The position numbers and the translations under genes were made by a program. Of a stretch of DNA of 35,576 nt, positions 7,127 to 26,403 are shown piece by piece (within the stretch, counting starts at the first letter, position 1; each line of letters opens with the position of its first letter). The notes beneath the pieces are model-generated. The model was given only the letters and a program-made list of their open reading frames with translations. It ran no database searches and was not told the origin of the DNA. Source of the DNA: a virus; the IMG/VR virus record IMGVR_UViG_3300029310_000030, positions 1-35,576 of that record. One strand, written 5' to 3'.

Positions 7127-8314
7127 TCAGCCTGCCGAAGCGGGCAGCTGTACGGCCACAAAGCCGTTCTTGACCACGACATCCGCGCCCAGCTCCACGT
7201 CGCCACGGATGGTATCCAGCAGCTTGTCAAAGCGGAAGTCCTCAGAAACTGCGATCTCGTAGGCGCTGAAAAGGTCGAGCTCAATGCAGGTGGGCACGCC
7301 GTAGAACATCGTTTTCTGTGCGGCAGTGGTCTGGGCCGTGCCGTTCAGCGCGGTCAGATTTTTGTTCAGGCAGTAGCGCACGGTCAGGCCGCCATCCTTG
7401 ATGGTGCCGGTGTTGGGGTTGGCAGTATCCGGGGTGATCTCATACACAGGCTTTTTCTCGTTGGCACCGCGCACGTCGCCAAAAGCGATCAGGTCGGTTT
7501 TGTTGAGGAAAAGCACAGCACCGCCAGCAACGCCCTCATCGCCGCCGTATGCCAGAGCGATCTTGCGCAGGGTGCCTGCATTGATAGCGCCCTTCTTGCT
7601 CACCACATCACCGTCCACAGTGGAGTTGAGGGCGCTTTCCTGGAGCTTCTTGGTCACAACGGAGGCAGCCTTTTTGCGCAGACTCAGCATGGCCTGCTCA
7701 CGCACCTTGGCCTCATACATCAGCGGGGTCTGCTTTTTGGCCTGCTTGCTGATATAGGACAGGGTGGCCACGGATTCCGGGGTGATGGTGATGGTGGCGA
7801 AGGCAGGCTCCTTTTCGGTGGCAGCACTGCCCTCGGTCTGATTGTCAGCCTCGTCAGCGTCCGCGCTCAGATAGGCGATCTTGTTGCTGCCCATGCCCTC
7901 GCAGTTGACGACCTTCACCATGTCGATGATGCTCGACACGCGCACATCTGCGCTGTCATTGATGCCGGAAACGCCGGTGGGGGTCAGCAGGGTGCCACCG
8001 CTCACCAGCACAGCACGGGTCTCGACGGTGCCGATGGTTTCGCGCCGGGTCTCCTTAAAGGCCTGAGCGCGCTCCTCATTTTCGTTGTGGGCAGCAGGGT
8101 TCTCCATCCGGGAACCTGCGCCATTTGCGACCATCTCACGGATAGCCTGCCGCTTTTCGGCAGCGGCCAGCTGCTTCTTGCGTTCGCAGATGCGGGTAGC
8201 CTCAGCTTCCAGCTCCTTCAGAGCATCGCCCTCAGCGGTCTCACATTCTTTGACGATTTCAGCCTGCCGGGTCTCCAGCTCCTGAGCGGTCATTTCTTCG
8301 ATTTTCTTAGACAT
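7127..8314 (-). CDS. Major capsid protein, HK97 family, 395 aa
   Basis: N-terminal coiled-coil delta-like domain (MSKKIEEMTAQELETRQAEIV...) followed by an HK97-fold-type body. It follows the prohead protease. Confidence 0.9.
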   Translation of the reverse strand: MSKKIEEMTAQELETRQAEIVKECETAEGDALKELEAEATRICERKKQLAAAEKRQAIREMVANGAGSRMENPAAHNENEERAQAFKETRRETIGTVETRAVLVSGGTLLTPTGVSGINDSADVRVSSIIDMVKVVNCEGMGSNKIAYLSADADEADNQTEGSAATEKEPAFATITITPESVATLSYISKQAKKQTPLMYEAKVREQAMLSLRKKAASVVTKKLQESALNSTVDGDVVSKKGAINAGTLRKIALAYGGDEGVAGGAVLFLNKTDLIAFGDVRGANEKKPVYEITPDTANPNTGTIKDGGLTVRYCLNKNLTALNGTAQTTAAQKTMFYGVPTCIELDLFSAYEIAVSEDFRFDKLLDTIRGDVELGADVVVKNGFVAVQLPASAG

Positions 8315-8316
8315 AG

Positions 8317-8961
8317 TTACACTCCCATAAGCTTAATTTTGATTCGTGTGACGGTATCTGCCCGGGCCAGTCGCTCCGCTTCCATTTTCTCGATCACTCC
8401 GTCGGAAAATTTCCGGGCACTGATAGATGTGGCATCGTTGGCCGGGAGGCTCACGGCACTCACATCAAACAGCTTCTTGAATTTTGTGATGGTACGATAG
8501 ACGGTCAATGTTCCGGTTTCGTGGTCTTCCACGGATTCCCGTTTATCTTCTCCGACGATAAAGCCAAAGCTCATCTTGTCGGTGTACCCGCCTTTGATTT
8601 CACCATACAGCTGGCGACCGATTTCGGTTCCGCCCAGATCAGCGGTTACTTTCAGTCCGGTGGCATCCGTTGCCAGGGTCAGGGTGCCGTTTTTTGTTCT
8701 GGCAAAGACACGCCCGTTGTGATCATACTGGAAGATGACATCTGTCATGTCACAGTTGTCAAAAGCATGCGGGTCTACCTGCTCATAGATTTTGTACCGC
8801 TGGCCGTCGTAGAGCAGATACTGCTGGTTAAAGGTCGTGGCGTAGCCCTCGACGATCATTTTGCTATCGCCGTCATCCTGGTCATCCGCCCGGACTTCCA
8901 GCTGCATGGCACGGTACTCGCGCCCGCCGTCCAGCTTTTTCAAAAGCTTCTCATTTTCCAT
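8317..8961 (-). CDS. Prohead (HK97-family) maturation protease, 214 aa
   Basis: The segment ...MIVEGYATTFNQQY...HNGRVFART... resembles S78/U35 prohead proteases. It lies between the portal and capsid genes. Confidence 0.85.
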   Translation of the reverse strand: MENEKLLKKLDGGREYRAMQLEVRADDQDDGDSKMIVEGYATTFNQQYLLYDGQRYKIYEQVDPHAFDNCDMTDVIFQYDHNGRVFARTKNGTLTLATDATGLKVTADLGGTEIGRQLYGEIKGGYTDKMSFGFIVGEDKRESVEDHETGTLTVYRTITKFKKLFDVSAVSLPANDATSISARKFSDGVIEKMEAERLARADTVTRIKIKLMGV

Positions 8962-10162
8962 TTGTTGGCTCTTCCCCTCCTTTTTTCACCTGTCCATCCT
9001 GGCCGATGAGGTAGTACTCACCACGGATGGTATATGCTTGACCCATGCCGTCAGGCAGCGGGTCAAGATTCCAGATTTCACGGATCTCGTCGCGGTTCAT
9101 TATGCCGCGGTCTGCCATGCCCTGAGAGACGTTAAGTTTTTCCGTGTTGCTCATGTACTGCAAGCGGTTGGCCGTGGCCATGATTTTTGCTCCCCGGGCC
9201 AGCTCGTTTTCAGAGAAAAGCATCCTGCTGACAGCGTCGCTGAATTGGATCGAAAACGGCTTGATGCGGCCTTCATAGAAAGCGTTCCATGCATCACCGT
9301 ATGCCTTGTTTTGGATGACCTCTTCATTGACACCGAAGTAGTCAAAAACGCTGGTACGGATGCGCTCCATCTCCTCAGTGCTGGCCACGAAAGGCGTGCT
9401 CTTGAGCTGCTGGACGTTATCATAGGTCTTGGGAAAGAGCAGGATACCGCCGCCCTCGCCCTGTAAATTTTCCTTACTGAAGTTGTCCCGCTCTTTTTTC
9501 AAGTCCTCAGACTTGGCGAAGTTAGAAAGCCGGGCCATAAAGCGGAAAGAGGCAGAGTTTTTGACTGCTTCTTTGATGCCCTGATTCTGGATGTTCACTA
9601 AGTCCATGGTCGGGTTCAGCGCCCGATTATCTTCGCCGAAAAGGTCGTTTTTATACTGAAATTTGGTCAGTATCGCACACTTTTTCATCTCGACGGATGC
9701 CGTCTTTCCGTTTTGGAATGTATAAACTAAAAAAGGCTGCCCGGCATACTGTTTTACCTCGCAGTTGCTGGGCAGCACCGGAAAGATGCCAACGACCTTG
9801 TCTTTTCCGTCTGCATCCACACCCTCCAGCACCGGCACCACAAAAGCGGTGTTCTGCATATCCAGGATGGTGGACAGACGATACAAAAACTGGCCCCATG
9901 TCTGCCAGGAGTTGGGGCCCTGCCTGAGCCGGGTTTGGAGCTCAGGTTTTGCGCTGCCGATGATCTTCACATCCAGCTTGCTGGCGTGGTTGGCAGTGGC
10001 GTGCACCGCCGCGCGGACAATTTCACTTTCGTACAGCTCACCGCCCCAGCTGGTAAAGCTCGGGGTGTAGCCGTCCAGCAGCTCCCAGAATTTTTGTCCA
10101 GCGCTCTGCACCTTGGGTTTTCCGAAAATCGCTTCAAAAAGTCCCACACTCTCACTCCTCAT
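8951..10162 (-). CDS. Portal protein (HK97-type), 403 aa
   Basis: Size and position immediately after TerL. The sequence has portal-like character. Confidence 0.85.
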   Translation of the reverse strand: MRSESVGLFEAIFGKPKVQSAGQKFWELLDGYTPSFTSWGGELYESEIVRAAVHATANHASKLDVKIIGSAKPELQTRLRQGPNSWQTWGQFLYRLSTILDMQNTAFVVPVLEGVDADGKDKVVGIFPVLPSNCEVKQYAGQPFLVYTFQNGKTASVEMKKCAILTKFQYKNDLFGEDNRALNPTMDLVNIQNQGIKEAVKNSASFRFMARLSNFAKSEDLKKERDNFSKENLQGEGGGILLFPKTYDNVQQLKSTPFVASTEEMERIRTSVFDYFGVNEEVIQNKAYGDAWNAFYEGRIKPFSIQFSDAVSRMLFSENELARGAKIMATANRLQYMSNTEKLNVSQGMADRGIMNRDEIREIWNLDPLPDGMGQAYTIRGEYYLIGQDGQVKKGGEEPTNGK

Positions 10163-11801
10163 TTTTCAGCTGTTCACCGATTTCATCGGCCCATTTTTGG
10201 CGCACAGTCATAGCATCCAGCAGAGCAGCACCGCCATCAATATGCTCGTTGACGCTGATCTTGATGGGACGCATACGCCCGCTTTCGATATCCATTTTCA
10301 TGCCCATAGACAGCAGGTGCGCTTTCAGCAGGTCGTTATCACCAATGTCAAAAGCTCCATCTTTCATAAGCCCTTCGGTTTCCCGGATGACCGGGGTCAG
10401 GTTGAAGCCCTGAAAGACATCGTCCATCTGAAATCCGTAGGCATCCATGTCCTGTACAAGATACTGCGCCGTGTACCGGTCATAGCCGACTTTGAGCGGC
10501 AAAATCTCGTATTTTTCCACAAGCTCTGCAAACCATGCGAAGCAGTCGTGATAGTCCACGAAGTTACCGCCAGACAGCGTAAGAAGTCCACGCTGGACAT
10601 ATATGGGGTACGGCAAGCCATCCCGCGCAGTTGCCTCCTCCAGCTTTTCGCTTGGCATAAAAAAGTGAGCAAAAACATGAAGCCGTTTTTGCTTTTCGAT
10701 GACCACACAGCAGGCGGTCAAGTCTGTGGTACGGGAAAGGTCGATACCGCCTACACAGTAAGTAGAGCGGAAATCTTCCAGCTGCAGTGCATCTCCGCTG
10801 CATTTCTCCACGGCTTGCGTAGGTAGCCATGCCTGGGAGCTATTTTGTTTGATGTTGCAGTACTTTGTGATAAACTCAGCCTTTTTTGAGAGACTTCCCT
10901 CGGCCACGGCAATTTCTTCCAGCAGATAATCCACCGAAACTGAAACGCCAAGATTGGGGTTTGATTTGCGCAGCTCGTTGATGTCATTCCACTTGGCAAC
11001 ATCGTCGATCATGTACAGGAAAGGTGCTAGCCTTGCCTCTTTGGAATCGCCCAGCAAGAAACGAGTGCTTCGCTTGACCAACTCGTCATAGATGCCCTCG
11101 TTGATATATCCTGCCGTGCTGATACTCAGGATGATAGGCTGCCGTCTGGCACCCAAAGCGGATTTCATCACCTCATACTGTTTCAGGCCCTGATCTCCGG
11201 GCCAGGATGCGATCTCATCGCAGATGGTCAGCGAAGGGTTAAAGCCATCACTTTTCTTGGCGTTAAAGGCGATTTTTTTGATACTGGAGTTGGTGGCCTC
11301 CACATACAGGTCGGACTTGCGCGGCTTGATGCGGCAAGCCAGCTCAGGCTCATTGCTGGCGCTTTGCCAGAAAGCCTGGTAAACCAGGTCAGCCTGATCC
11401 AGCTTGGGAGCCACGCAGTACGTCTTTGCGCCATACTCTCCATCCATAAAAGTGCAGTAGGAGATGATGGCGCTGGCAAAGAGCGTTTTGCCGTTTTTGC
11501 GCGCCACCACTAGAATCACTTCTCGGAACTGCCGGTTTCCGGCACCGTCGAGAATCCCGAAGACCACCGACACAAAGGCCTTTTGCCACAGCTCCAGCTT
11601 GATGGTGTCAGATCGTCCTTCGCTGTGGTGGCAAAAGGTTTCAATGTATCGAATGGCTTTGGATGCCTTTTTCTGGTCAAAGAAAAAGGACTGCTTTTGC
11701 AGTCCATCAATGATGTACTTGTAAAAAAGACGGATCCACCGCCCTACGACGATGGTCCCGTCCTCGATTGCCTGATAGTAAGCCAGCAGGTAATTATCCA
11801 T
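10152..11801 (-). CDS. terL: Terminase large subunit, 549 aa
   Basis: Terminase_1-like N-terminus (MDNYLLAYYQAIEDGTIVVGRW...), a Walker-like VVARKNGKT motif and a nuclease C-terminal half. Confidence 0.9.
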   Translation of the reverse strand: MDNYLLAYYQAIEDGTIVVGRWIRLFYKYIIDGLQKQSFFFDQKKASKAIRYIETFCHHSEGRSDTIKLELWQKAFVSVVFGILDGAGNRQFREVILVVARKNGKTLFASAIISYCTFMDGEYGAKTYCVAPKLDQADLVYQAFWQSASNEPELACRIKPRKSDLYVEATNSSIKKIAFNAKKSDGFNPSLTICDEIASWPGDQGLKQYEVMKSALGARRQPIILSISTAGYINEGIYDELVKRSTRFLLGDSKEARLAPFLYMIDDVAKWNDINELRKSNPNLGVSVSVDYLLEEIAVAEGSLSKKAEFITKYCNIKQNSSQAWLPTQAVEKCSGDALQLEDFRSTYCVGGIDLSRTTDLTACCVVIEKQKRLHVFAHFFMPSEKLEEATARDGLPYPIYVQRGLLTLSGGNFVDYHDCFAWFAELVEKYEILPLKVGYDRYTAQYLVQDMDAYGFQMDDVFQGFNLTPVIRETEGLMKDGAFDIGDNDLLKAHLLSMGMKMDIESGRMRPIKISVNEHIDGGAALLDAMTVRQKWADEIGEQLKNEE

Positions 11802-12253: not shown

Positions 12254-12574
12254 TCATTCGGCAGTGATTTTCCCATCTTCTCCGACAGAAAAACGCCGCT
12301 TTGTCCGGTCAGCTGGCTTGTGGATTTCTCCATCATGGACTTTGTGATGGCATTCACGGCATAAAAGCTCCAAATTGCCCCAGTCCAGCAGCACTTGCGG
12401 GTCGTTGATGGTATCCGGTGTCACACGGATTTTGTGGTGGACGATTTCGCCCGCCGTCACAATACCATCACGCAGGCACCGCTCACACAAGCCGCCCACA
12501 CTGGCCACATAGGCAGCGCGGCAGCGTTGCCATGCCTTGCTCTTGTAAAAGCCTTGTGCAAACTCTTTTGCCAT
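12254..12574 (-). CDS. HNH endonuclease (packaging-associated), about 106 aa (start trimmed to MAKEF...)
   Basis: CxxC...HHK...CxxCH motifs (LCERC...EIVHHKIRV...LCRECHHKVH). GAGGAA RBS 6 nt upstream of the ATG at 12574. Adjacent to the terminase genes. Confidence 0.85.
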   Translation of the reverse strand: MAKEFAQGFYKSKAWQRCRAAYVASVGGLCERCLRDGIVTAGEIVHHKIRVTPDTINDPQVLLDWGNLELLCRECHHKVHDGEIHKPADRTKRRFSVGEDGKITAE

Positions 12575-12588
12575 ATCATATTCCTCGA

Positions 12589-12662
12589 TGCGCCCGGTGA
12601 GATTTGAACTCGCGGCCCATAGATTAAAAATCCATTGCTCTTCCATTCTGAGCTACAAGCGC
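12589..12662 (-). tRNA. tRNA-Lys(UUU), hand-folded, 74 nt, no encoded CCA
   Basis: Minus strand: GCGCTTG TA GCTC AGAATGGAA GAGC A ATGGA TTTTTAA TCTAT GGGCC GCGAG TTCAAAT CTCAC CGGGCGC A. Cloverleaf with two G-U pairs in the acceptor stem and one C-A mismatch in the T stem. Confidence 0.7.
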
Positions 12663-12758
12663 ATAAAATAAGCGGCCCGTTTGCGGTCGGGCCGCTGCAT
12701 CTGGAACTTTCGCGGCCAGATGCCCCGCTATCGTGCGCTCCCTGCAAAGGTTGCACGG

Positions 12759-12900
12759 TGGAGCTGCCAGCCGGATTTGAACCAGCACCCACACGTTCAT
12801 GTGCTCATTGGTTAGGAATCAAGCACATCCTGTTCCGTGTGGTGTCACCAGCGATAGCCAGCCTTAAACGGGCTGTGCTCTACCATTGAGCTATGACAGC
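12759..12900 (-). tRNA. tRNA-like gene (142 nt) with a ~72-nt structured insertion between the anticodon arm and the T arm; encoded CCA
   Basis: Minus strand: GCTGTCA TA GCTC AATGGTA GAGC A CAGCC CGTTTAA GGCTG [72 nt] GCTGG TTCAAAT CCGGC TGGCAGC T CCA. The acceptor stem pairs over 7 bp. The anticodon loop has an atypical G at position 33. Confidence 0.5.
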
Positions 12901-13104
12901 ATATCAAAAAGTGTCCACAGTGGACACCCGCAGTGGAAAAGATTTTACTGTGTGCGCCGCTGGATTTTGAAGCGGACGGCGCTTGTGTCCATTGAGCGTG
13001 CTTTTTCCCAATACACGCTATGCTTCCCGCCGGGATGGAATCCTCAATGAAGCGGCTCAGGTGCCTTAGCCTGTAACCGCACTATGATGATATCACATCA
13101 AAAT

Positions 13105-13175
13105 CGGACATTCAGGACAAAATGACCATTTTCGGACAATCCGGACAAATCGGACAAAATGACCATTTCCGGACA
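13105..13175. repeat. Array of six (C)GGACA motifs including two 17-bp direct repeats (GGACAAAATGACCATTT)
   Basis: CGGACA/GGACA at 13105, 13115, 13133, 13142, 13151 and 13170. The 17-mers lie at 13115-13131 and 13152-13168. The array is in non-coding DNA upstream (minus sense) of the tRNAs and packaging genes. Confidence 0.8.
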
Positions 13176-13176
13176 T

Positions 13177-13437
13177 TTATCCTTTTGCTTCATAATCTTT
13201 GCAGACGCGCCCGGAGACGTTTAGGAAGTGCCCACACTCACATACCACCGTATAATAATTTTCTGTGGTTTTTTCTTTTTTGTGGATGCATGTAGCGCAT
13301 GAAGGCTTTCGGCTATACAGGATATCTGCAATCACTTCTATAGAACACTTTCTACTATCCAGATGCCACAGCGCACAGCTGCTTGTCTGGCAATCCCTCG
13401 AGCCAGCTCTGCTGTATGAAAATGGGCACTCTTTCAT
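13177..13437 (-). CDS. Small Cys-rich hypothetical protein, 86 aa
   Basis: ORF with about 10 Cys (CxxC-like pairs). The segment is A/T-richer than its surroundings. Confidence 0.45.
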   Translation of the reverse strand: MKECPFSYSRAGSRDCQTSSCALWHLDSRKCSIEVIADILYSRKPSCATCIHKKEKTTENYYTVVCECGHFLNVSGRVCKDYEAKG

Positions 13438-14693: not shown

Positions 14694-16031
14694 TCACTTC
14701 AAATCAAGATATCTTATCAGGCTTTCCACTGCATCCGTGTAATTTTCCCAGCCGGTAGTAAAGAAATCACCTGACTTGTAGATGATGGCATAACGTACAT
14801 GCTCGCCCGGGGCAAAGCCCACAGCATCACGCTGGGTATCATCCAGCCGCCATAGATACGCCCCGCCGGGGAGTTCTTTCTTGTAAAAATCCAGCTTGAA
14901 CTTCCAAAGGTCACGGTCAAAAATCCAGCCGCCTTTTTCGTTCAATGTCTTTTCTGCCAGAGCCAGCAGAGTGGCCCGCCCACGGGGTTCAGGAGCTGAG
15001 TTTTTGCAAACATCCGAAACATTCTTTCCGGGTTCACTTTTTGCTTTTTGGGGCGCAATGCCTTTTTCAATGCAGAACCTCACAAACTTTGCCCAGGTAA
15101 ATACGTATTCACCTTTTCCCATTCCCCAAAAGCGTATCTTGTCTCGGTAAAAATCAACAAATCCTTTTTTCAAGCTTCGGCCACACATATCGCCCTTGCC
15201 TTTTGCAAGTGCTTCGCCCGTGAATTCAGGAGCAGACTTAACAAAATCCATCGAGCAGACCTCTTTTGCCGATTCCAGCACCCACTCAGGATACTCCGGT
15301 GCAGCTTTCGGTAACGTTTCCAGTGGTTTTTGCTCCGGTGCGGAGGAATCCGCGAATCCCGGCATGGATTCTGGGCTTTCCGCAGGCTCCTTAGGTGGAT
15401 TCTTAGCCGCAATGACATCTTGTGCCCGACGGTACGCTTCCATCAGTGTGATTTCTCCGGTTCGCAAAGACCGTTTCGTGTCATCTCCGCAGTTTTCCGC
15501 TATGGCATTCAGCCGGGCCGCCGCGCCGGTGCTCAGACCCAGGATGCGGCAAAGCTCATCCCTGACCTTTCCTTGCAGCTGGCCAAAGTGCTTTTTTCGG
15601 GTCAGCACTTCTTTCAAGGCCTCATACTGGGCCAGCCGTTCGCCATCGGTCAGGTCTCGGGCCGTGGCGTTGGCCGTGATCAGAGCTATTTTATCATCGT
15701 CCGCGTCCTTGCTTTCCCGGATGACGCACGGCAGCATATCAAAACCTTCCACGCCCTCCTTTGCAAGCTCCTCGCAGGCTGTCAAACGCCTCTCGCCGCC
15801 GATGAGCTTGTAACCGCCAAAGGGAAGTTCCACGACTTCCAGCGGTTGCCGGATCCCGTTTGCCCTGATATCTTCTTTCAGCCTGGATACATCCCCGATG
15901 ATGTAGATCCGATTATCCGGGTTCCTATGCAGTTGCCCGCGGTCAATCATAACCACCTGCATCTTCTGCCCCGCCGGGATGGCTGTTTTGCTCTGGGTGT
16001 TCAAAAGGCAATCCAATAATCCAGTGCTCAT
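14694..16031 (-). CDS. ParB/Srx N-terminal-domain protein with an unknown C-terminal extension, 445 aa
   Basis: ...HRNPDNRIY...GIRQPLEVVELPFGGYKLIGGERRLTACEEL... is a ParB-N motif, followed by an HTH-like segment, a Pro/Glu linker and a ~170-aa unknown domain. Confidence 0.7.
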   Translation of the reverse strand: MSTGLLDCLLNTQSKTAIPAGQKMQVVMIDRGQLHRNPDNRIYIIGDVSRLKEDIRANGIRQPLEVVELPFGGYKLIGGERRLTACEELAKEGVEGFDMLPCVIRESKDADDDKIALITANATARDLTDGERLAQYEALKEVLTRKKHFGQLQGKVRDELCRILGLSTGAAARLNAIAENCGDDTKRSLRTGEITLMEAYRRAQDVIAAKNPPKEPAESPESMPGFADSSAPEQKPLETLPKAAPEYPEWVLESAKEVCSMDFVKSAPEFTGEALAKGKGDMCGRSLKKGFVDFYRDKIRFWGMGKGEYVFTWAKFVRFCIEKGIAPQKAKSEPGKNVSDVCKNSAPEPRGRATLLALAEKTLNEKGGWIFDRDLWKFKLDFYKKELPGGAYLWRLDDTQRDAVGFAPGEHVRYAIIYKSGDFFTTGWENYTDAVESLIRYLDLK

Positions 16032-16309
16032 CGTACTTTCCTCCCGAGTTTTTCAGCAGCGTCAACGAGTATCATAACAGCCTCAGCAGTGAGCCATCCC
16101 TCCACGCCGCAATGACACAGTAGGTTTATCCCCATGGCTTCAAGATATCCAGCCTTTCCGCCATAGGAGTACGGCGTACACACCGCATCCCAGTACCATT
16201 TTTGAGCATCCGGAACGATGATCTGAACGCCGCCCTGAAATGCCCGGTCGTATATATGGGCAATGCCTTTTTCTGTAAGCATGGCATCCAGCTTATCCAT
16301 CTCAGTCAT
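16028..16309 (-). CDS. Hypothetical protein, 93 aa (between the parA and parB-like genes)
   Basis: ORF with overlapping start and stop on both sides (translationally coupled). Confidence 0.5.
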   Translation of the reverse strand: MTEMDKLDAMLTEKGIAHIYDRAFQGGVQIIVPDAQKWYWDAVCTPYSYGGKAGYLEAMGINLLCHCGVEGWLTAEAVMILVDAAEKLGRKVR

Positions 16310-17106
16310 CGTTTTTTACCCTCCACTGTTTTCTCCACGATATCTGCCAGCTGGCGATACTCGGTACTGGCCGGTACGCGGTAGCAGTAGATCGGCAGAT
16401 GTTCGGTCTTCGCTTCCTTGACCTTCACGCTGTAATCGATGCGCAGCACGCCGCCATCTTCAGCACGGAACACGGGATAATGCATCTTGTCCAGCTGATC
16501 CAGCTGGATGAGGACTTTTTCGGAGTAGGTACCCCGGGTGTACTTGGTGGCCAGGATACCCATGACCTTGATACCGGGATTGTAGTTTTCCCGGACAGCA
16601 TCCACCTGCTCCATGATCTCGAAGAGACCGTCAAAGGCCCACTCATCACAATCCACCGGCACGATGACCCAGTCAGCCGCCACAAGGGCGTTGATGGTGG
16701 CCATGTCGATATCAGGCGGGCAGTCCAGGATGCAGTAGTCGTATTTATCGGCAATGTCGTTCAGGGCTTTGCGCAGTCGGTTGTGCTGTGGCCGGGTTAC
16801 GTCCAGCATGACCTCACGGTTTGCCTTGATCATGCTCATGCTGCTGGGTGCGACATCCACATACTCAAAATCCGTTTTCTGGATGATATCGCTCAGGGTG
16901 ATGCTTTCCATCATCACCTCGGCCACGGTAGATATGCCCGGGTCAAACGTTTTGAAAAACTTGGAGGTGTTGGCCTGCTTGTCCAGATCCATTACCAGGA
17001 CGTGCCGGTGGTGCATCTGGGCAAGAATGCAGGCCAGGTTGCAGGCGGTAACGGATTTCCCGACCCCGCCTTTGAGGTTGATGATCGCGATTTTTTGCAT
17101 TTTCAT
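16306..17106 (-). CDS. parA: ParA/Soj-family partition ATPase, 266 aa
   Basis: Deviant Walker A motif IAIINLKGGVGKS and the ...VLVMDLDKQANTS... segment. Confidence 0.85.
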   Translation of the reverse strand: MKMQKIAIINLKGGVGKSVTACNLACILAQMHHRHVLVMDLDKQANTSKFFKTFDPGISTVAEVMMESITLSDIIQKTDFEYVDVAPSSMSMIKANREVMLDVTRPQHNRLRKALNDIADKYDYCILDCPPDIDMATINALVAADWVIVPVDCDEWAFDGLFEIMEQVDAVRENYNPGIKVMGILATKYTRGTYSEKVLIQLDQLDKMHYPVFRAEDGGVLRIDYSVKVKEAKTEHLPIYCYRVPASTEYRQLADIVEKTVEGKKR

Positions 17107-24635: not shown

Positions 24636-25238
24636 ATGAATGAATATGAAAAAAGAGTGGCAAAGGTTTTAGAGATGGCACGATTCAAAGCCGGTATCAG
24701 TCAGGAAAGACTTGCCAAGCGGATGGGCGTAAGTCGTCCCACCATTGCGGGCAAAGAGCAAGGAACATCCCCCGCCTCACTGGCAGATATCATCAGCTGG
24801 TGCGTGTCGTGCGGGGTTCCGGCCAAACGCTATACCGATGCCTGTGTCCATCCTGGTCTGCTGGAGTACCTGGAAGACGGCATCGGCACAGAAGAAAAGC
24901 GGCAGATCTTACACGGGCTGGTTGACGATATGTCCAGCTATGAGGTCGATGGATGGCTGTATCTCTACTATGGCGACCACGGCTCAGATCCACTGGGCGT
25001 GCTGACAGAGGTGCTGGCCAACTTGCACACTCCGCTGCGCGACCGTGTGACGATCGTAAACGCTATAATCGGGCATTATAAGATGGCGCAATCGACAGAC
25101 ACAGACCCGGACCCAAACGGGACGCAGCCGGTCATGCCGATTGTGCAGCAAGCCAGTCAGTGCGGTACTGAAGCTGCCCGCCGCGGTAGTGACGTTTACT
25201 CAGCACAGTTGGAGGTAGATAAAGATGGCAAGGGCTAA
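24636..25238 (+). CDS. XRE-family HTH protein with a C-terminal domain, about 200 aa (start trimmed to MNEYEK...)
   Basis: HTH segment ISQERLAKRMGVSRPTIAGKEQG. Its 3' end overlaps the integrase start. Confidence 0.6.
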   Translation: MNEYEKRVAKVLEMARFKAGISQERLAKRMGVSRPTIAGKEQGTSPASLADIISWCVSCGVPAKRYTDACVHPGLLEYLEDGIGTEEKRQILHGLVDDMSSYEVDGWLYLYYGDHGSDPLGVLTEVLANLHTPLRDRVTIVNAIIGHYKMAQSTDTDPDPNGTQPVMPIVQQASQCGTEAARRGSDVYSAQLEVDKDGKG

Positions 25239-26403
25239 AAAGGGAATCCGGCCAGACGGTCTGTATCAGTGCCGCCGGGTCATGCCGGATGGAAAAAAGA
25301 AGTCCTTTTACGGTCACAGCAAAACGGAAGCCGAGGGAAAGTATAAAGAAGCTCTGAAAAAGTGGGAAGAGGAACACCCACAAAAAGGTAAAAGCAACAC
25401 GGTAACTTACAGGCAGGCGGTTGCGGCCTACCATGACTACATCACCGGGCCTGCAAAGCCGGTGCGCCGCGGTACAATCACCTCATATCAAAAGCACCTG
25501 GGCCCCACCAGCGAGTACTTCGGGGATGCCTTGATGGAGGACATCGACGCTCAAAAGGTAAAGGAGTATCTGGACATCCTTGCCGCAGAGGGTAAAGCAA
25601 AAAAGACAGCCATCAACGCGCGATCAGTTATCAGCTGCGTTTTTGAGTATTGGTGCAACTACCTGCACGGCACTGGGAATCCGGTGCGGAATGCTCATAT
25701 CCCCAAAAAGATGCCGGTAACGGAGCGGCAGGAGCCCACAAAAGAGCAGCGGCAGCTGATTGAAGCTCACCCAGAGGGATGCGGTTTCTGGGCGGCACTC
25801 TTCGAGTATACTGGTATGCGCATGGGCGAGGCCAACGGCCTGCGCTGGAAAAACGTTGACTTTGCCGCCGGAAAGATCACGCCAGAGCAAGCTATGCCCT
25901 GGGATAAAAATCACCCCTACAAAGAAGAGCTGAAAACGCTCAAGGCCTACCGGTCAATCCCCATCCTCAACAAATTTCGGCCCATGCTGGAAGAGGCTGC
26001 AAAAGGCCACGATCCAGATGACTATGTCCTGTCGGGAGAGAAAGAACCCCTCAGCCAGTCCCAGTACGAGTGGCGCTGGGCGATTTACTGCCGGGGCCTG
26101 GGTCTGGCCGTCAAGCAGGAGAAGCACTCCAAAATCAAGGGCCAGCCAGGAAAAATCCGAACATACTACAAATGGAAAGCACTTGTCACGGCGCACCAGT
26201 TCCGGCACCTTTATGCGTCGAACCTCTTTTATGCTCAAGTGCCGGACAAGGTGGCGCAAAAGCTTTTGGGCCACGCAGACATCTCTACCACCCGCCGCAT
26301 TTATCAGCATCTGCGTGAGGATGAGGACATGAAATACACCGACATGCTCAACGCATATATCGACGGGCAGGATAAAATCCCAAGTGATAATGTTGGTAAA
26401 TGA
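25225..26403 (+). CDS. int: Tyrosine integrase, 392 aa
   Basis: Catalytic-type motifs TGMRMGEANGLRW, HQFRH and LLGHADISTTRRIY. Lies next to attP. Confidence 0.9.
   Translation: MARAKKGIRPDGLYQCRRVMPDGKKKSFYGHSKTEAEGKYKEALKKWEEEHPQKGKSNTVTYRQAVAAYHDYITGPAKPVRRGTITSYQKHLGPTSEYFGDALMEDIDAQKVKEYLDILAAEGKAKKTAINARSVISCVFEYWCNYLHGTGNPVRNAHIPKKMPVTERQEPTKEQRQLIEAHPEGCGFWAALFEYTGMRMGEANGLRWKNVDFAAGKITPEQAMPWDKNHPYKEELKTLKAYRSIPILNKFRPMLEEAAKGHDPDDYVLSGEKEPLSQSQYEWRWAIYCRGLGLAVKQEKHSKIKGQPGKIRTYYKWKALVTAHQFRHLYASNLFYAQVPDKVAQKLLGHADISTTRRIYQHLREDEDMKYTDMLNAYIDGQDKIPSDNVGK

Follow-up and report, generated by a model that had tools for sequence, protein, structure and literature searches.

Does a phage gene that has every arm of a tRNA, a G in place of the universal U33 and 72 extra nucleotides between its anticodon and T arms encode a working tRNA, the remains of one, or an RNA with another task? 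The gene lies on the minus strand of a 35,576-nt virus record (IMG/VR IMGVR_UViG_3300029310_000030), which was analysed at its full length and is called the window below. A preliminary description of this DNA had left three options: the gene could be a tRNA that is interrupted or in decay, one that has taken up a new kind of intervening element, or a decoy or regulatory RNA of tRNA-like shape.

Structure of the tRNA-like gene

The acceptor, D, anticodon and T arms and the encoded CCA were all found on the minus strand where the preliminary description had placed them (Table 1). The Rfam tRNA model (RF00005) matched positions 12762-12900 with 46.1 bits (threshold 29, E = 6.5e-07) and assigned the extra bases to the variable region. 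Relatives of the gene score 44-50 bits with the same model, and the window gene reaches 112 bits with our own covariance model, R1. All nucleotides of the tertiary core are present (U8, A14, R15:Y48, G18G19 and the T54-Psi55-C56 positions). The Rfam scan, taken to E <= 10, returned no meaningful match besides tRNA (group I intron, ribozymes, riboswitches, tmRNA, Y RNA, C4 and pRNA) and gave no grounds for reassigning the region to another family. ARAGORN, one of the programs by which the gene was to be checked, made no call for it; its tmRNA search found no tmRNA in the window, and Rfam gave no tmRNA match either.

The minimum-free-energy fold of the gene is a cloverleaf plus a long hairpin (CCACACG...AUGUGCU...AGCACAU...CGUGUGG), and thus reproduces the irregular hairpin described for the 72-nt insert. 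Thermodynamics alone lends modest support, with z-scores of -2.40 (whole element) and -1.36 (insert), so that the case for more structure than expected by chance rests on comparative data. The description of a tRNA-like gene with a structured element in its variable region was borne out: the element is far longer than any class II arm and, with tRNA as the only Rfam match, is no group I intron.

Table 1. Features of the tRNA-like gene and of the surrounding noncoding array, in window positions
Feature	Position	Strand	Remarks
Whole tRNA-like gene, allele W	12759-12900	-	139 nt from G1 to discriminator U (12900-12762), plus encoded CCA (12761-12759)
Acceptor stem	12900-12894 with 12769-12763	-	GCUGUCA with UGGCAGC; 7 bp, one U.G pair
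D arm	12891-12877	-	GCUC-AAUGGUA-GAGC; has A14, A15, G18, G19 and A21
Anticodon arm	12875-12859	-	CAGCC-CGUUUAA-GGCUG; tRNA-Lys(UUU)-type loop, G33 at 12869 replacing universal U33
Insert	12858-12787	-	72 nt; separates anticodon arm from T arm
Linker	12858-12843	-	GCUAUCGC-UGGU-GACA, 16 nt; UGGU (12850-12847) is the putative pseudoknot 5' strand
Long irregular hairpin, variable-region domain	12842-12789	-	minimum-free-energy fold and comparative support
Basal helix of hairpin	12842-12836 with 12795-12789	-	CCACACG with CGUGUGG
Middle helix of hairpin	12828-12822 with 12805-12799	-	AUGUGCU with AGCACAU
Apical loop region of hairpin	12816-12807	-	
ACCA of apical loop	12812-12809	-	putative pseudoknot 3' strand, 4 bp with linker UGGU (12850-12847)
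Junction GU	12788-12787	-	U at 12787 is position 48
T arm	12786-12770	-	GCUGG-UUCAAAU-CCGGC; canonical T loop (UUCRAAU)
Discriminator U	12762	-	
CCA	12761-12759	-	
Structured leader, conserved	12906-13082	-	RNAalifold on six relatives: compensatory pairs
Terminator closing the leader	12929-12909	-	hairpin and U-run; terminator scan; ~8 nt upstream of the tRNA-like gene
Spacer hairpin	12723-12697	-	GCAUCUGG-CCGCGAAAGUU-CCAGAUGC; conserved
Intrinsic terminator after spacer hairpin	12696-12671	-	terminator scan
Canonical tRNA-Lys(UUU)	12587-12663	-	ARAGORN; Rfam 57.3 bits; immediately downstream, same noncoding array, before the HNH and terminase genes

A family of gut phage genes

Human-gut phage and metagenome sequences yielded homologs of the gene in at least 250 contigs. 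These include more than 119 contigs of IMG/VR, and among the metagenome matches listed 118 of 120 loci were real copies. The family is widespread and fast-swapping, and apparently undescribed. Covariation among relatives, on which the preliminary description had made its reading depend, was found in the arms and in the insert alike. In two alignments, 95.2% and 96.3% of helix cells were paired, compared with 23-50% when the partners were slid. Pairs changed on both sides numbered 18, against 7.9 +/- 1.6 in shuffled data, and 18 was reached in none of 500 shuffles; since most of these double substitutions split only a few lineages, many pairs represent few independent events.

Across the family the acceptor stem was paired in 97.6-99.8% of cells, its pair 3:70 alternating between C-G and U-A, the D stem in 99-100% and the T stem in 100%, with compensatory changes in two or three T-stem pairs (C-G, U-A, A-U; U-A, C-G, U.G). 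The anticodon stem showed compensatory changes from A-U to C-G. The Levitt pair 15:48 (A15 at 12886 and U48 at 12787 in the window) was paired in 100% of sequences and covaried, being A-U in alleles W, A, B and X and G-C in T153 and T156. Conservation is highest in the acceptor, T and D arms and lowest in the anticodon arm, which changes fastest across alleles. The pair counts reveal strong structural selection, and the tRNA shape is clearly maintained by it. Compared with canonical phage tRNAs, the core of the family is 58-79% identical to all of them; phage tRNA-Lys is marginally the closest to the type A core, and an origin from tRNA-Lys is weakly indicated.

A conserved domain in the variable region

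The insert of the window is 72 nt long, compared with 53-87 nt in relatives. Its conserved domain consists of a linker with UGGY, a long hairpin with a bend, and an apical loop with RCCA; the overall architecture is common to all allele types. The linker motif AACNUUGGYGAYAC is kept in all long-insert allele types, and the ends of the insert and the apical loop are conserved between allele types that are otherwise little alike in sequence. An independent alignment showed compensatory changes in six of the eight pairs of the basal helix. Because no close relative of the window allele turned up in any collection searched, its specific helices draw their support solely from the homology of this architecture. 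The preliminary description had also noted that the insert begins with TGACACC, a near-copy of the acceptor 3' strand. UGACACC agrees with UGGCAGC in only 5 of 7 bases, and it is found from base 12 of the insert onwards, not at its beginning. As it is part of a linker that is conserved while the acceptor sequence varies, the resemblance looks coincidental, and a duplication of the acceptor strand was rejected.

Over 211 loci, the linker and apical loop combined as UGGU:ACCA in 183, as UGGC:GCCA in 13 and as wobble intermediates in 11; the exceptions were one clear mismatch (UGGU:ACAA) and one odd combination, which probably reflects faulty parsing, and UGGC:ACCA was absent among these loci. 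Three independent compensatory events were identified, in the T153/T156 lineage, in locus L265 within type A and in allele X of locus L293 (UGAU:AUCA). These substitutions support a pairing of the linker UGGY with the apical RCCA, which would fold the hairpin back as a pseudoknot; the same pairing could equally be an intermolecular contact.

Two other readings of the linker were discarded. A fold lacking the T arm, in which UGGUGAC-ACCA would serve as a second acceptor 3' strand, is weakened by a C-to-U variant and by the covariation of UGGY with the apical loop. A DNA palindrome, TGGTG-A-CACCA, as a protein-binding site is not conserved, other alleles having TGGTGATACCA or TTGGCGATACAC. As a separate observation, T153 and T156 have a competing helix, CAUUGGC:GUUAAUG, that is homologous to a 12-bp hairpin of T155; it is sterically incompatible with the basal helix and competes with the pseudoknot.

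Allele types and their exchange

At least seven allele types were distinguished, including W (the window allele), A, B, X, T153, T155 and T156. W, A, B and X are Lys-type alleles with a 5-bp anticodon stem and a 7-nt loop, and U33 is missing in every copy of them examined. The loop was CAUUUAA in 116 of the 117 IMG/VR copies among the matches listed and CGUUUAA in the window only; the CRUUUAA loop is near-invariant in more than 200 type A and B copies. The G33 pointed out in the preliminary description is present, and it is peculiar to the window: relatives of types A, B and X, of which more than 200 loci were examined, carry A33, bar one variant loop, AAGUUAA. Relatives of the G33 allele itself were sought with a loose pattern in IMG/VR, where all 22 matches were false positives, and in a metagenome scan, which gave 0 matches.

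The remaining alleles depart further from a tRNA. In T156, T153 and T155 the "anticodon" stem is 8 bp long or the loop has collapsed: T153 and T155 are without a 7-nt anticodon loop, T155 lacks the apical loop altogether, and the loops of T156 read GAU or GGU. These three types occupy the genomic slot of the window gene and were the only ones found there in other phages. The discriminator base varies between A, U, G and C, with A73 in about half of the type A copies.

Exchange involves whole alleles, between phages that are nearly identical elsewhere. In a near-twin phage (95-97% identical overall) the same slot holds another allele, with 58 differences over the 139-nt gene (42%) and 5 differences over 518 nt of flanking sequence (1%). 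Alleles also occur in tandem within one phage, at loci L053 and L293.

Genomic context

The gene is located between intrinsic terminators in the leader of a late operon (HNH, terminase, portal, capsid), in two phage groups; the genes downstream encode an HNH endonuclease, TerS, TerL, the portal and the major capsid protein. RNAalifold on six relatives gave an alternative pairing of the conserved leader with the 5' arm of the terminator. The spacer hairpin recurs in another phage group, between tRNA-Trp and a type A gene. The canonical tRNA-Lys(UUU) lies about 100 nt from the window gene, and several relatives also have a canonical copy. Canonical neighbours in relatives are tRNA Trp, Met and Thr, with tRNA-Trp adjoining the tRNA-like gene in all 25 relatives checked. 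Further degenerate tRNA-like sequences were seen in the same leaders.

An integrase and an HTH repressor-like gene mark the phage as temperate. One of the homologous contigs belongs to a Faecalibacterium MAG and the closest named phages infect Butyrivibrio, so that the carriers appear to be temperate gut phages of Clostridia, the host being only loosely assigned. A remnant of an attP or integration site was rejected, the gene being 12 kb from the integrase and a complete tRNA, not a 3' fragment. Reading the loop shifted by one, as an ochre suppressor with anticodon UUA, was rejected as well: with the standard code, coding sequence fills the window densely, and the loops of sister alleles are unrelated.

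Proposed explanation

Decoding is unlikely, given the absence of U33 from every Lys-type copy examined and the 8-bp stems or collapsed loops of sister alleles. The variable discriminator, and an odd loop that was never found together with a normal variable region under the pattern tested, also count against it. The gene retains all the features required for an L-shaped tRNA fold and for recognition by tRNA-processing enzymes (7-bp acceptor, U8, A14, Levitt pair, G18G19, canonical T loop and, in the window, an encoded CCA). Among the three options of the preliminary description, a decoy or regulatory RNA seems the best reading. Our tentative preference is for a stable, tRNA-shaped noncoding RNA, a late tRNA mimic that would not decode and would decoy a host factor acting on tRNA, for instance an anticodon nuclease; we hold this to be quite possible.

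Such an RNA would be transcribed with the late genes through terminator read-through and excised by RNase P and 3' processing. Its tRNA body and look-alike anticodon stem-loop could then be shown to a host factor that acts on tRNA, the most plausible target being an anticodon nuclease of an abortive-infection defence (PrrC-, RloC- or PARIS-like). Enzymes of this kind target tRNA-Lys(UUU), and PrrC cleaves 5' of the wobble base. A purine 33 beside the bond cut by PrrC, together with the bulky domain, would leave the RNA a weak substrate and exclude it from translation, and an arms race with such factors would account for the turnover of alleles. Phage tRNAs are known to counteract anticodon nucleases (PMC10264068); AriB of PARIS cuts tRNA-Lys, recognising its anticodon stem-loop, and phage T5 evades PARIS with a variant tRNA-Lys (PMC11464382). 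In the literature searched, we found no description of a phage tRNA decoy that does not decode. To our knowledge, the phage anti-nuclease tRNAs documented so far are all working replacement tRNAs.

A more general proposal, which we regard as doubtful, is that non-decoding decoys form a new class of counter-defence, offering an uncleavable Lys-UUU look-alike to a host anticodon nuclease or another tRNA-directed effector; the pseudoknot domain would trap the enzyme or block translation, and the alleles, some of them in tandem, would track host effectors. The collapsed loops of T153 and T155 cannot mimic a specific anticodon, so that a function common to all alleles, if there is one, would be independent of the loop. 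Conservation of the linker, the apical loop and the tRNA core suggests that the extra domain may itself carry the activity, which the decoy idea leaves unexplained.

Alternative explanations

Several other roles would leave the tRNA shape in place. The gene might act in cis on processing or punctuation: as a module shaped like a tRNA it would recruit RNase P and RNase Z to cleave the long transcript made by read-through, and so define and stabilise the 5' end of the HNH/terminase mRNA while its interior drifts freely. This is supported by its place in two phage groups, always within the leader, flanked by terminators and directly ahead of the packaging genes, and also by the better conservation of the acceptor, T and D arms than of the anticodon arm and by the other degenerate tRNA-like sequences of these leaders. 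Free drift is contradicted by the covarying pseudoknot and basal helix and by the near-invariant CRUUUAA loop; alleles are replaced wholesale, with no gradual decay, and the canonical tRNAs of the array would already supply processing sites, so that we consider such an element unlikely. We also think it quite unlikely that the product is a "rescue tRNA", a working, aminoacylated and nuclease-resistant tRNA-Lys(UUU) variant that replaces depleted host tRNA-Lys in late translation. The mechanism is documented elsewhere (PMC10264068, PMC11464382) and would suit the intact core, the canonical 5-bp stem and 7-nt loop of W, A, B and X, the UUU anticodon followed by A37 and A38, the proximity of the type A core to phage tRNA-Lys and the presence of A73, preferred by LysRS, in about half of the type A copies. 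It would have to work with no U33 in any Lys-type copy examined, a discriminator that is not conserved and a pseudoknotted domain of 53-87 nt, compared with at most ~20 nt in functional tRNAs (PMC7609411). A canonical tRNA-Lys(UUU) is moreover already available 100 nt away and in several relatives, and clearly non-decoding alleles fill the same slot in sister phages. The reading as a dying tRNA gene without a function of its own, whether a pseudogene or a tRNA split by a small mobile or intron-like element, would explain the ARAGORN rejection, the non-U33 loop, the collapsed anticodon loops of some alleles and the lack of close relatives of the window allele. It is largely refuted by covariation and in our judgement highly improbable: what the preliminary description took for a possible interruption or sign of decay is conserved as a covarying domain and evolves jointly with the tRNA body across 250 or more contigs; helix cells are 95-96% paired, and many compensatory changes are seen, some of them within the insert and between linker and loop. 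The insert ends and apical loop are conserved across divergent allele types, an insert-free version was not found with the pattern tested, and group I intron and ribozyme models gave no match.

Three further explanations give the RNA a partner other than a nuclease. P1/P7 C4 and P4 CI are precedents of tRNA-like, RNase P-processed phage regulatory RNAs, and a trans-acting RNA of this kind, whose loops pair with transcripts of the phage or of a competitor and set immunity or late-gene specificity, would explain the allele diversity. The tRNA-like shape suits RNase P processing, loops and helices differ allele-wise between near-identical phages, and the phage is temperate; complementarity to other parts of the 35.6-kb window does not exceed chance (two 11-mers against 2.2 expected, with seeds of at least 10 nt), on which ground an antisense guide was discarded, and the 518-nt flanks, the site of C4-type targets, are virtually identical despite different alleles. 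Rfam includes a C4 family, and neither it nor any other antisense family matched; a regulator of this kind thus appears improbable. The RNA could alternatively mimic an uncharged tRNA, switching on the T-box leaders of aminoacyl-tRNA synthetase genes or ribosomal RelA and boosting the capacity for late translation. T-box control is common in Clostridia, to which the hosts appear to belong, the elbow and the NCCA end are intact, the GAU and GGU loops of T156 fit AUC and ACC, the specifier codons usual for Ile and Thr, and the internal UGGY:RCCA formally resembles the T-box UGGN:NCCA contact. Mimicry of this sort is very improbable in view of the 8-bp anticodon stem, which alters the anticodon-to-elbow distance gauged by T-box stem I, of collapsed-loop alleles unable to pair with a specifier and of a linker UGGY that is mismatched to the RNA's own discriminator. 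Finally, an intermolecular UGGY:RCCA contact could join the RNAs hand in hand into multimers with a structural role, for example in packaging, as in phi29 prohead RNA, whose ring forms via a 4-bp AACC/GGUU contact. A covarying 4-bp contact fits pairing in trans as well as in cis, and the gene adjoins the HNH, TerS, TerL and portal genes. We find this extremely improbable: the standard TerS/TerL/HNH packaging set needs no RNA, no Rfam pRNA match was obtained, T155 is without the apical loop, and the helix lengths (7 bp basal and ~10 bp distal, with a large internal loop) suit an intramolecular fold-back.

Significance

Phage tRNA genes have recently been reread as weapons against bacterial defences that cut tRNA. 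The family described here is common in human-gut phages, has given up the hallmarks of decoding, has gained a conserved domain that folds back, and is traded between sister phages in the manner of an immunity cassette. If it were indeed a mimic or decoy, RNA-based inhibition would join the conflict between phage and host over tRNA, and the family would offer a way into the tRNA-directed defences of Clostridia that are hard to cultivate. As ARAGORN misses the family and Rfam labels it "tRNA", its members are lost or miscounted as Lys tRNA in annotation. Whatever its function, it shows that in nature a tRNA scaffold can accommodate a large RNA domain in its variable region.

Comparison with known systems

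With canonical tRNAs (RF00005) the gene shares the 7/4/5/5-bp cloverleaf, U8, A14, R15:Y48, G18G19, UUCRAAU and NCCA, and it scores above the gathering threshold; at loop positions 34-38 (UUUAA) it agrees fully with tRNA-Lys(UUU). It differs in having a purine 33 instead of the universal U, a variable region of 53-87 nt with a putative pseudoknot instead of 4-5 nt, a discriminator that is not conserved and sister alleles with 8-bp stems or collapsed loops. In functional tRNAs the variable region is 4-5 nt or somewhat more than 10 nt long and the anticodon stem has 5-6 bp (PMC7609411). Class II tRNAs (Ser, Leu, Tyr, Sec) and allo-tRNAs also have an extra helix between the anticodon and T arms, and their partner enzyme may recognise this arm and not the anticodon (PMC5389517). 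Their arm is a simple hairpin of ~10 to 20-odd nt directly after position 44/45, whereas here a conserved single-stranded linker of 16 nt is followed by a multi-helix hairpin of 40-70 nt whose loop would pair back; the 8/4 or 9/3 acceptor/T geometry and a conserved G73, the identity base of Ser and Sec, are missing.

Among non-decoding RNAs, tmRNA and YrlA resemble the family in combining a tRNA-like module seen by tRNA enzymes with large extra domains that contain pseudoknots. Unlike the full cloverleaf found here, tmRNA is without a D stem and anticodon arm and has a tag reading frame, and YrlA has both its ends in a Ro-binding stem, whereas the extra domain of the present family is in the variable region. 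Group I introns of tRNAs are at least 200 nt long, self-splicing and located in the anticodon loop, as opposed to 72 nt in the variable region. From phi29 pRNA, only the 4-bp contact is reminiscent: phi29 is protein-primed and without a terminase, and the window has TerL, TerS and HNH genes. C4 and CI RNAs are likewise small tRNA-like phage RNAs from a longer leader transcript, with allele differences between close relatives that set specificity; they pair with nearby targets in the same operon, whereas no such complementarity was found for the present gene and its flanks do not covary with the allele.

Phage rescue tRNAs (PMC11464382, PMC10264068, PMC11555353, PMC13096335) are similarly phage-encoded, lie in tRNA arrays and have changes in the anticodon stem-loop; examples are the tRNA-Lys of T5 against PARIS (PMC11464382), anticodon-loop variants (PMC10264068) and tRNA-Tyr against retron/PtuAB and Septu (PMC11555353, PMC13096335). 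They share with the present family a diversification that looks like an arms race, and Lys(UUU) is a recurrent target of defence nucleases. Rescue tRNAs are functional decoders with subtle substitutions, whereas here a universal decoding nucleotide is lost and a large domain added, so that any part of this RNA in that conflict would be the part of a decoy and not of a replacement.

A tRNA-like gene with a structured variable region

The tRNA-like gene of the window was read directly from the sequence as a complete cloverleaf, and the arms, the insert between anticodon and T arms and the encoded CCA were as the preliminary description had drawn them. The Rfam tRNA model scored it at 46.1 bits (threshold 29) and placed the 72 extra nucleotides as a variable-region insertion, the minimum-free-energy fold consisted of a cloverleaf plus a long irregular hairpin, and a permissive Rfam scan returned no family other than tRNA in the region, so that no reassignment arose. 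ARAGORN called only the neighbouring tRNA-Lys(UUU), not the tRNA-like gene itself. Folding z-scores were modest, at -2.4 for the complete element and -1.4 when the insert was folded by itself, and thermodynamics is by itself insufficient to make the case for a structured RNA.

Features of the window
Feature	Position	Strand	Details
Cloverleaf, complete	12900-12762	-	Read directly from sequence
Acceptor stem		-	GCUGUCA / UGGCAGC, one U.G pair
Acceptor/D junction		-	U8-A9
D arm		-	GCUC-AAUGGUA-GAGC
D/anticodon junction		-	A26
Anticodon arm		-	CAGCC-CGUUUAA-GGCUG
Insert		-	72 nt between anticodon and T arms
T arm		-	GCUGG-UUCAAAU-CCGGC
Discriminator and CCA	12761-12759 (CCA)	-	U, then encoded CCA
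Leader, 1st: direct repeats and promoter-like site	~13095-13180 (repeats)	-	At least six TGTCCG(A/G)WWT, ~11 nt spacing, just upstream of TTGATG...TATCAT
Leader, 2nd: conserved structured leader (177 nt)	12906-13082	-	Ends in terminator 12929-12909
Leader, 3rd: tRNA-like gene	12759-12900	-	
Leader, 4th: conserved hairpin and second terminator	12723-12671	-	Spacer hairpin 12697-12723
Leader, 5th: tRNA-Lys(UUU)	12587-12663	-	
Segment absent from L153	13157-13445		~290 nt
ORF, 86 aa	13177-13437	-	Cysteine-rich, zinc-finger-like
Major capsid protein	7127-8314		
Portal	8951-10162		
TerL	10152-11801		
HNH endonuclease	12254-12646		
ParA/ParB-like partition pair	14694-17106		
Tyrosine integrase	25225-26403		
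SSB			
RNase T-like exonuclease			

Family members and allele types

The element is a member of a family and not an accident. A fecal phage contig in GenBank (MT839005) matched it at 75% identity over exactly the element and nothing else; its architecture is the same, and three of its stems show compensatory changes. A motif scan of IMG/VR yielded at least 119 contigs, and a second scan, run on metagenome assemblies with a different anchor, matched at least 120 loci, 118 of the 120 listed being real. Further alleles came from scans anchored on the acceptor, the T loop or the downstream flank, and from a terminase-based search, which retrieved alleles at the same locus in sister phages. Using a covariance model built from 30 representatives, we found one long copy per locus, except at L053 and L293, which each carry two different alleles in tandem.

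Allele types of the family
Type	Length (nt)	Anticodon arm	Remarks
W	139	CAGCC-CGUUUAA-GGCUG	Window only
A	136	CCGCC-CAUUUAA-GGCGG	Commonest by far
B	150-155	Identical to A	Longer; insert interior differs
S	121	Identical to A	One deletion variant
X	136	CAUUUAA loop	Locus L293; another distinct insert interior
T156	143	8-bp stem CUUUGCAU/AUGCAAGG, loop CUGAUAC or CUGGUAC	
T153	137	CUUUG-G-CAU-AAG-AUG-CAAAG	
T155	106	CUUGCAC-A-GUGCAAG	Insert cut down to a 12-bp hairpin

Lys-type alleles (W, A, B and X) have A33 in all copies examined (>200 loci) but two, the window (G33) and one copy with the loop AAGUUAA. Under the pattern tested, no copy combined an odd loop with a variable region of normal length. 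The discriminator varies across the family (A, U, G or C), and CCA is mostly not encoded.

Structural selection and a putative pseudoknot

In a MAFFT alignment of 30 sequences, 95.2% of helix cells were standard pairs versus 23-50% with slid 3' partners, with compensatory changes in the acceptor, anticodon and T stems. The arms of the preliminary description also covary in an independent metagenome set aligned to the covariance model, whose structure held only four insert pairs: 96.3% of cells were paired (32-44% when slid), and 18 pairs had changed on both sides versus 7.9 +/- 1.6 in shuffles, none of 500 shuffles reaching 18, although many of these double changes split a handful of lineages and so represent few independent events for most pairs. 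Six of the eight pairs of the insert's basal helix were compensatory. The Levitt pair covaries perfectly (A15:U48 in W, A, B and X; G15:C48 in T153 and T156), and G18G19 and the nucleotides of the T loop are canonical; folding into the tRNA L-shape is therefore almost certain.

Allele types share almost no insert sequence apart from a 5' linker (AACNUUGGYGAYAC), an apical loop (YARCCA) and a closing motif (GYGGGY). We tallied linker:loop combinations over 211 loci and found UGGU:ACCA at 183, UGGC:GCCA at 13, the U.G wobbles UGGU:GCCA and UGGU:ACCG at 7 and 3, and one locus each with the G.U wobble UGGU:ACUA, the mismatch UGGU:ACAA and an odd combination that is probably a parsing error; UGGC:ACCA occurred at none of the 211. 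At least two origins of the C-G state can be told apart, one in the T153/T156 lineage and one at L265, within a sequence that is otherwise type A. Allele X, found by the model with the linker unconstrained, has UGAU:AUCA, compensatory at another position of the same helix; the automated count scores this row as unpaired since its loop is shifted by one column, whereas on direct reading all four pairs form. Linker UGGY thus probably pairs with apical-loop RCCA to form a pseudoknot, the partners in the window being U12850-G-G-U12847 and A12812-C-C-A12809. The insert helices (7 bp basal, ~10 bp distal, with a large internal loop between) would allow the hairpin to bend back on itself. The four pairs would fit a contact between two molecules just as well; assembly into multimers with a structural role seems very improbable.

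Allele replacement at a fixed locus

The phage of locus L153 (IMG/VR UViG_3300045988_092402), 95-97% identical to the window, carries T153 in exactly the same slot. Of the 220 differences in their 6.6-kb alignment, 58 fall inside the 139-nt gene (42% divergence) and 5 in the 518 nt of immediate flanks (1%). Two further sister phages have T155 and T156 in this slot. From these comparisons we take the allele change to be a swap of cassettes between the conserved hairpins on either side and not the result of drift, which together with the tandem arrays suggests that alleles differ in specificity. Apart from the allele, the sole large difference between L153 and the window in this region is the ~290-nt segment encoding the 86-aa protein, which matched nothing in Pfam or PHROG.

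Genomic setting

The window is a temperate tailed phage and, having both a partition pair and an integrase, may persist as an integrated or plasmid-like prophage. No tRNA-handling enzyme was found among its genes. The HNH, TerS and TerL genes are preceded by a ~1-kb noncoding leader in which the element sits; from the layout and terminators of this leader we infer expression with the late genes via read-through.

Within the 177-nt leader, which had no Rfam match, we observed compensatory changes (GCGUG..CACGC versus GCACG..CGUGC), and RNAalifold predicts an alternative pairing of UCAUUGWGGAU and CCCGGCGGG with the 5' arm of the terminator; the leader looks like an antiterminator/terminator switch governing late-operon read-through. 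The TGTCCG repeats are kept in sister phages L153 and L155 and may be sites for a late activator, a ParB-like protein or the small terminase, or a pac/cos-proximal array. The spacer hairpin (GCAUCYRG-CCGCGAAAGUU-CYRGAUGC; also at ~10640-10670 of type A phage locus L005) has an invariant 11-nt loop and compensatory stem changes, lies between tRNA genes in two phage groups (3' of the tRNA-like gene in the window, in the tRNA-Trp/tRNA-like gap in type A phages) and could be a processing or protein-binding site.

By TerL, the nearest named phages are Butyrivibrio phages (57% identity). A Faecalibacterium MAG holds one allele, on a contig of 125 kb; the 24-kb contig that carries another was binned as Oxalobacter and may be a phage contig placed in the wrong bin. 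TerL kinship and the MAG contig therefore point to gut Clostridia as hosts, loosely assigned at species level.

Possible functions

Decoding is unlikely, because U33, universal in tRNAs, is absent, the discriminator is not conserved, alleles unable to present an anticodon interchange with that of the window, and the extra domain exceeds the largest variable arm known in functional tRNAs by a factor of three to four (PMC7609411). The preliminary description had allowed for a decaying tRNA, which covariation in the family rules out. The gene might serve as punctuation only, a tRNA-shaped RNase P cleavage site; this would leave both the selection on the insert and the near-invariant CRUUUAA loop unexplained, and we regard it as unlikely. 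An antisense role appears more doubtful still: no target emerged among the two 11-mer matches in 35.6 kb, against 2.2 expected, and the flanks stay the same whichever allele is present.

As these readings fit poorly, we favour mimicry, in which the RNA would resemble a tRNA to any tRNA-binding factor. Lys-type alleles would display a tRNA-Lys(UUU) loop changed at position 33, the nucleotide adjoining the PrrC cleavage site. Defence nucleases repeatedly target tRNA-Lys(UUU), among them PrrC (PMC10264068) and AriB of PARIS, a nuclease that recognises the anticodon stem-loop (PMC11464382). The element, which would be expressed late, could then serve as a decoy for a host factor acting on tRNA or inhibit it competitively, and conflict with that factor would drive allele turnover; as a whole, this statement is tentative, and we rate it somewhat below an even chance. 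We hold with high confidence that the element is a tRNA-shaped RNA that is conserved, non-canonical and probably non-decoding, with a pseudoknot in its variable-region domain.

Relation to other phage tRNAs and tRNA-like RNAs

Canonical phage tRNA-Lys, Trp, Met and Thr genes adjoin the family's elements, and the scans brought up other non-canonical sequences. Directly upstream of tRNA-Trp in L005 (~10451-10520) lies a second non-canonical tRNA-like sequence that starts GGCCGCCUGAGCGCAGUUUGGAGCGC, has a 9-nt 'anticodon' loop (UGAGAUAUU) and a T stem of 3 bp, and lacks a variable loop; ARAGORN does not call it, it stays below Rfam's gathering threshold and it scores weakly with the family covariance model (16-26 bits). 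Equivalent 69-nt matches (GC 0.67) recur at many loci of types A and B (e.g. L007 8211-8279). In another type A phage (L030 5780-5856), ARAGORN reports upstream of tRNA-Trp, in the same array as the tRNA-like element, a 'tRNA-???' with a 4-base anticodon (attg), hence an 8-nt anticodon loop. A 146-kb phage (L249, IMGVR_UViG_3300045988_146757; ~1449-1592 of the locus, minus strand) encodes a tRNA whose acceptor stem and T arm are perfect (GCUGUCA...UGGCAGC-UCCA) and whose anticodon loop contains a ~70-nt insertion; the insertion, too short for a group I intron, starts CUUGGUGAAG, reminiscent of the UUGGUGA linker motif. Two unrelated metagenome contigs (L327 and L376), false positives of the linker pattern, have GGUUGGUGACACCC ~10 nt upstream of an ordinary tRNA-Arg(CCG); its identity to a 10-mer of the family linker is probably a coincidence.

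We found no description of a tRNA or tRNA-like RNA of this architecture in the full-text literature searched, and no dedicated family in Rfam 15. Candidates described as tRNA-like figure in a 2023 catalogue drawn from IMG/VR (PMC10690425), and the family could be among its 10,006 unnamed candidate structures. The element belongs among phage tRNA and tRNA-mimic RNAs as a variant and is not categorically new.
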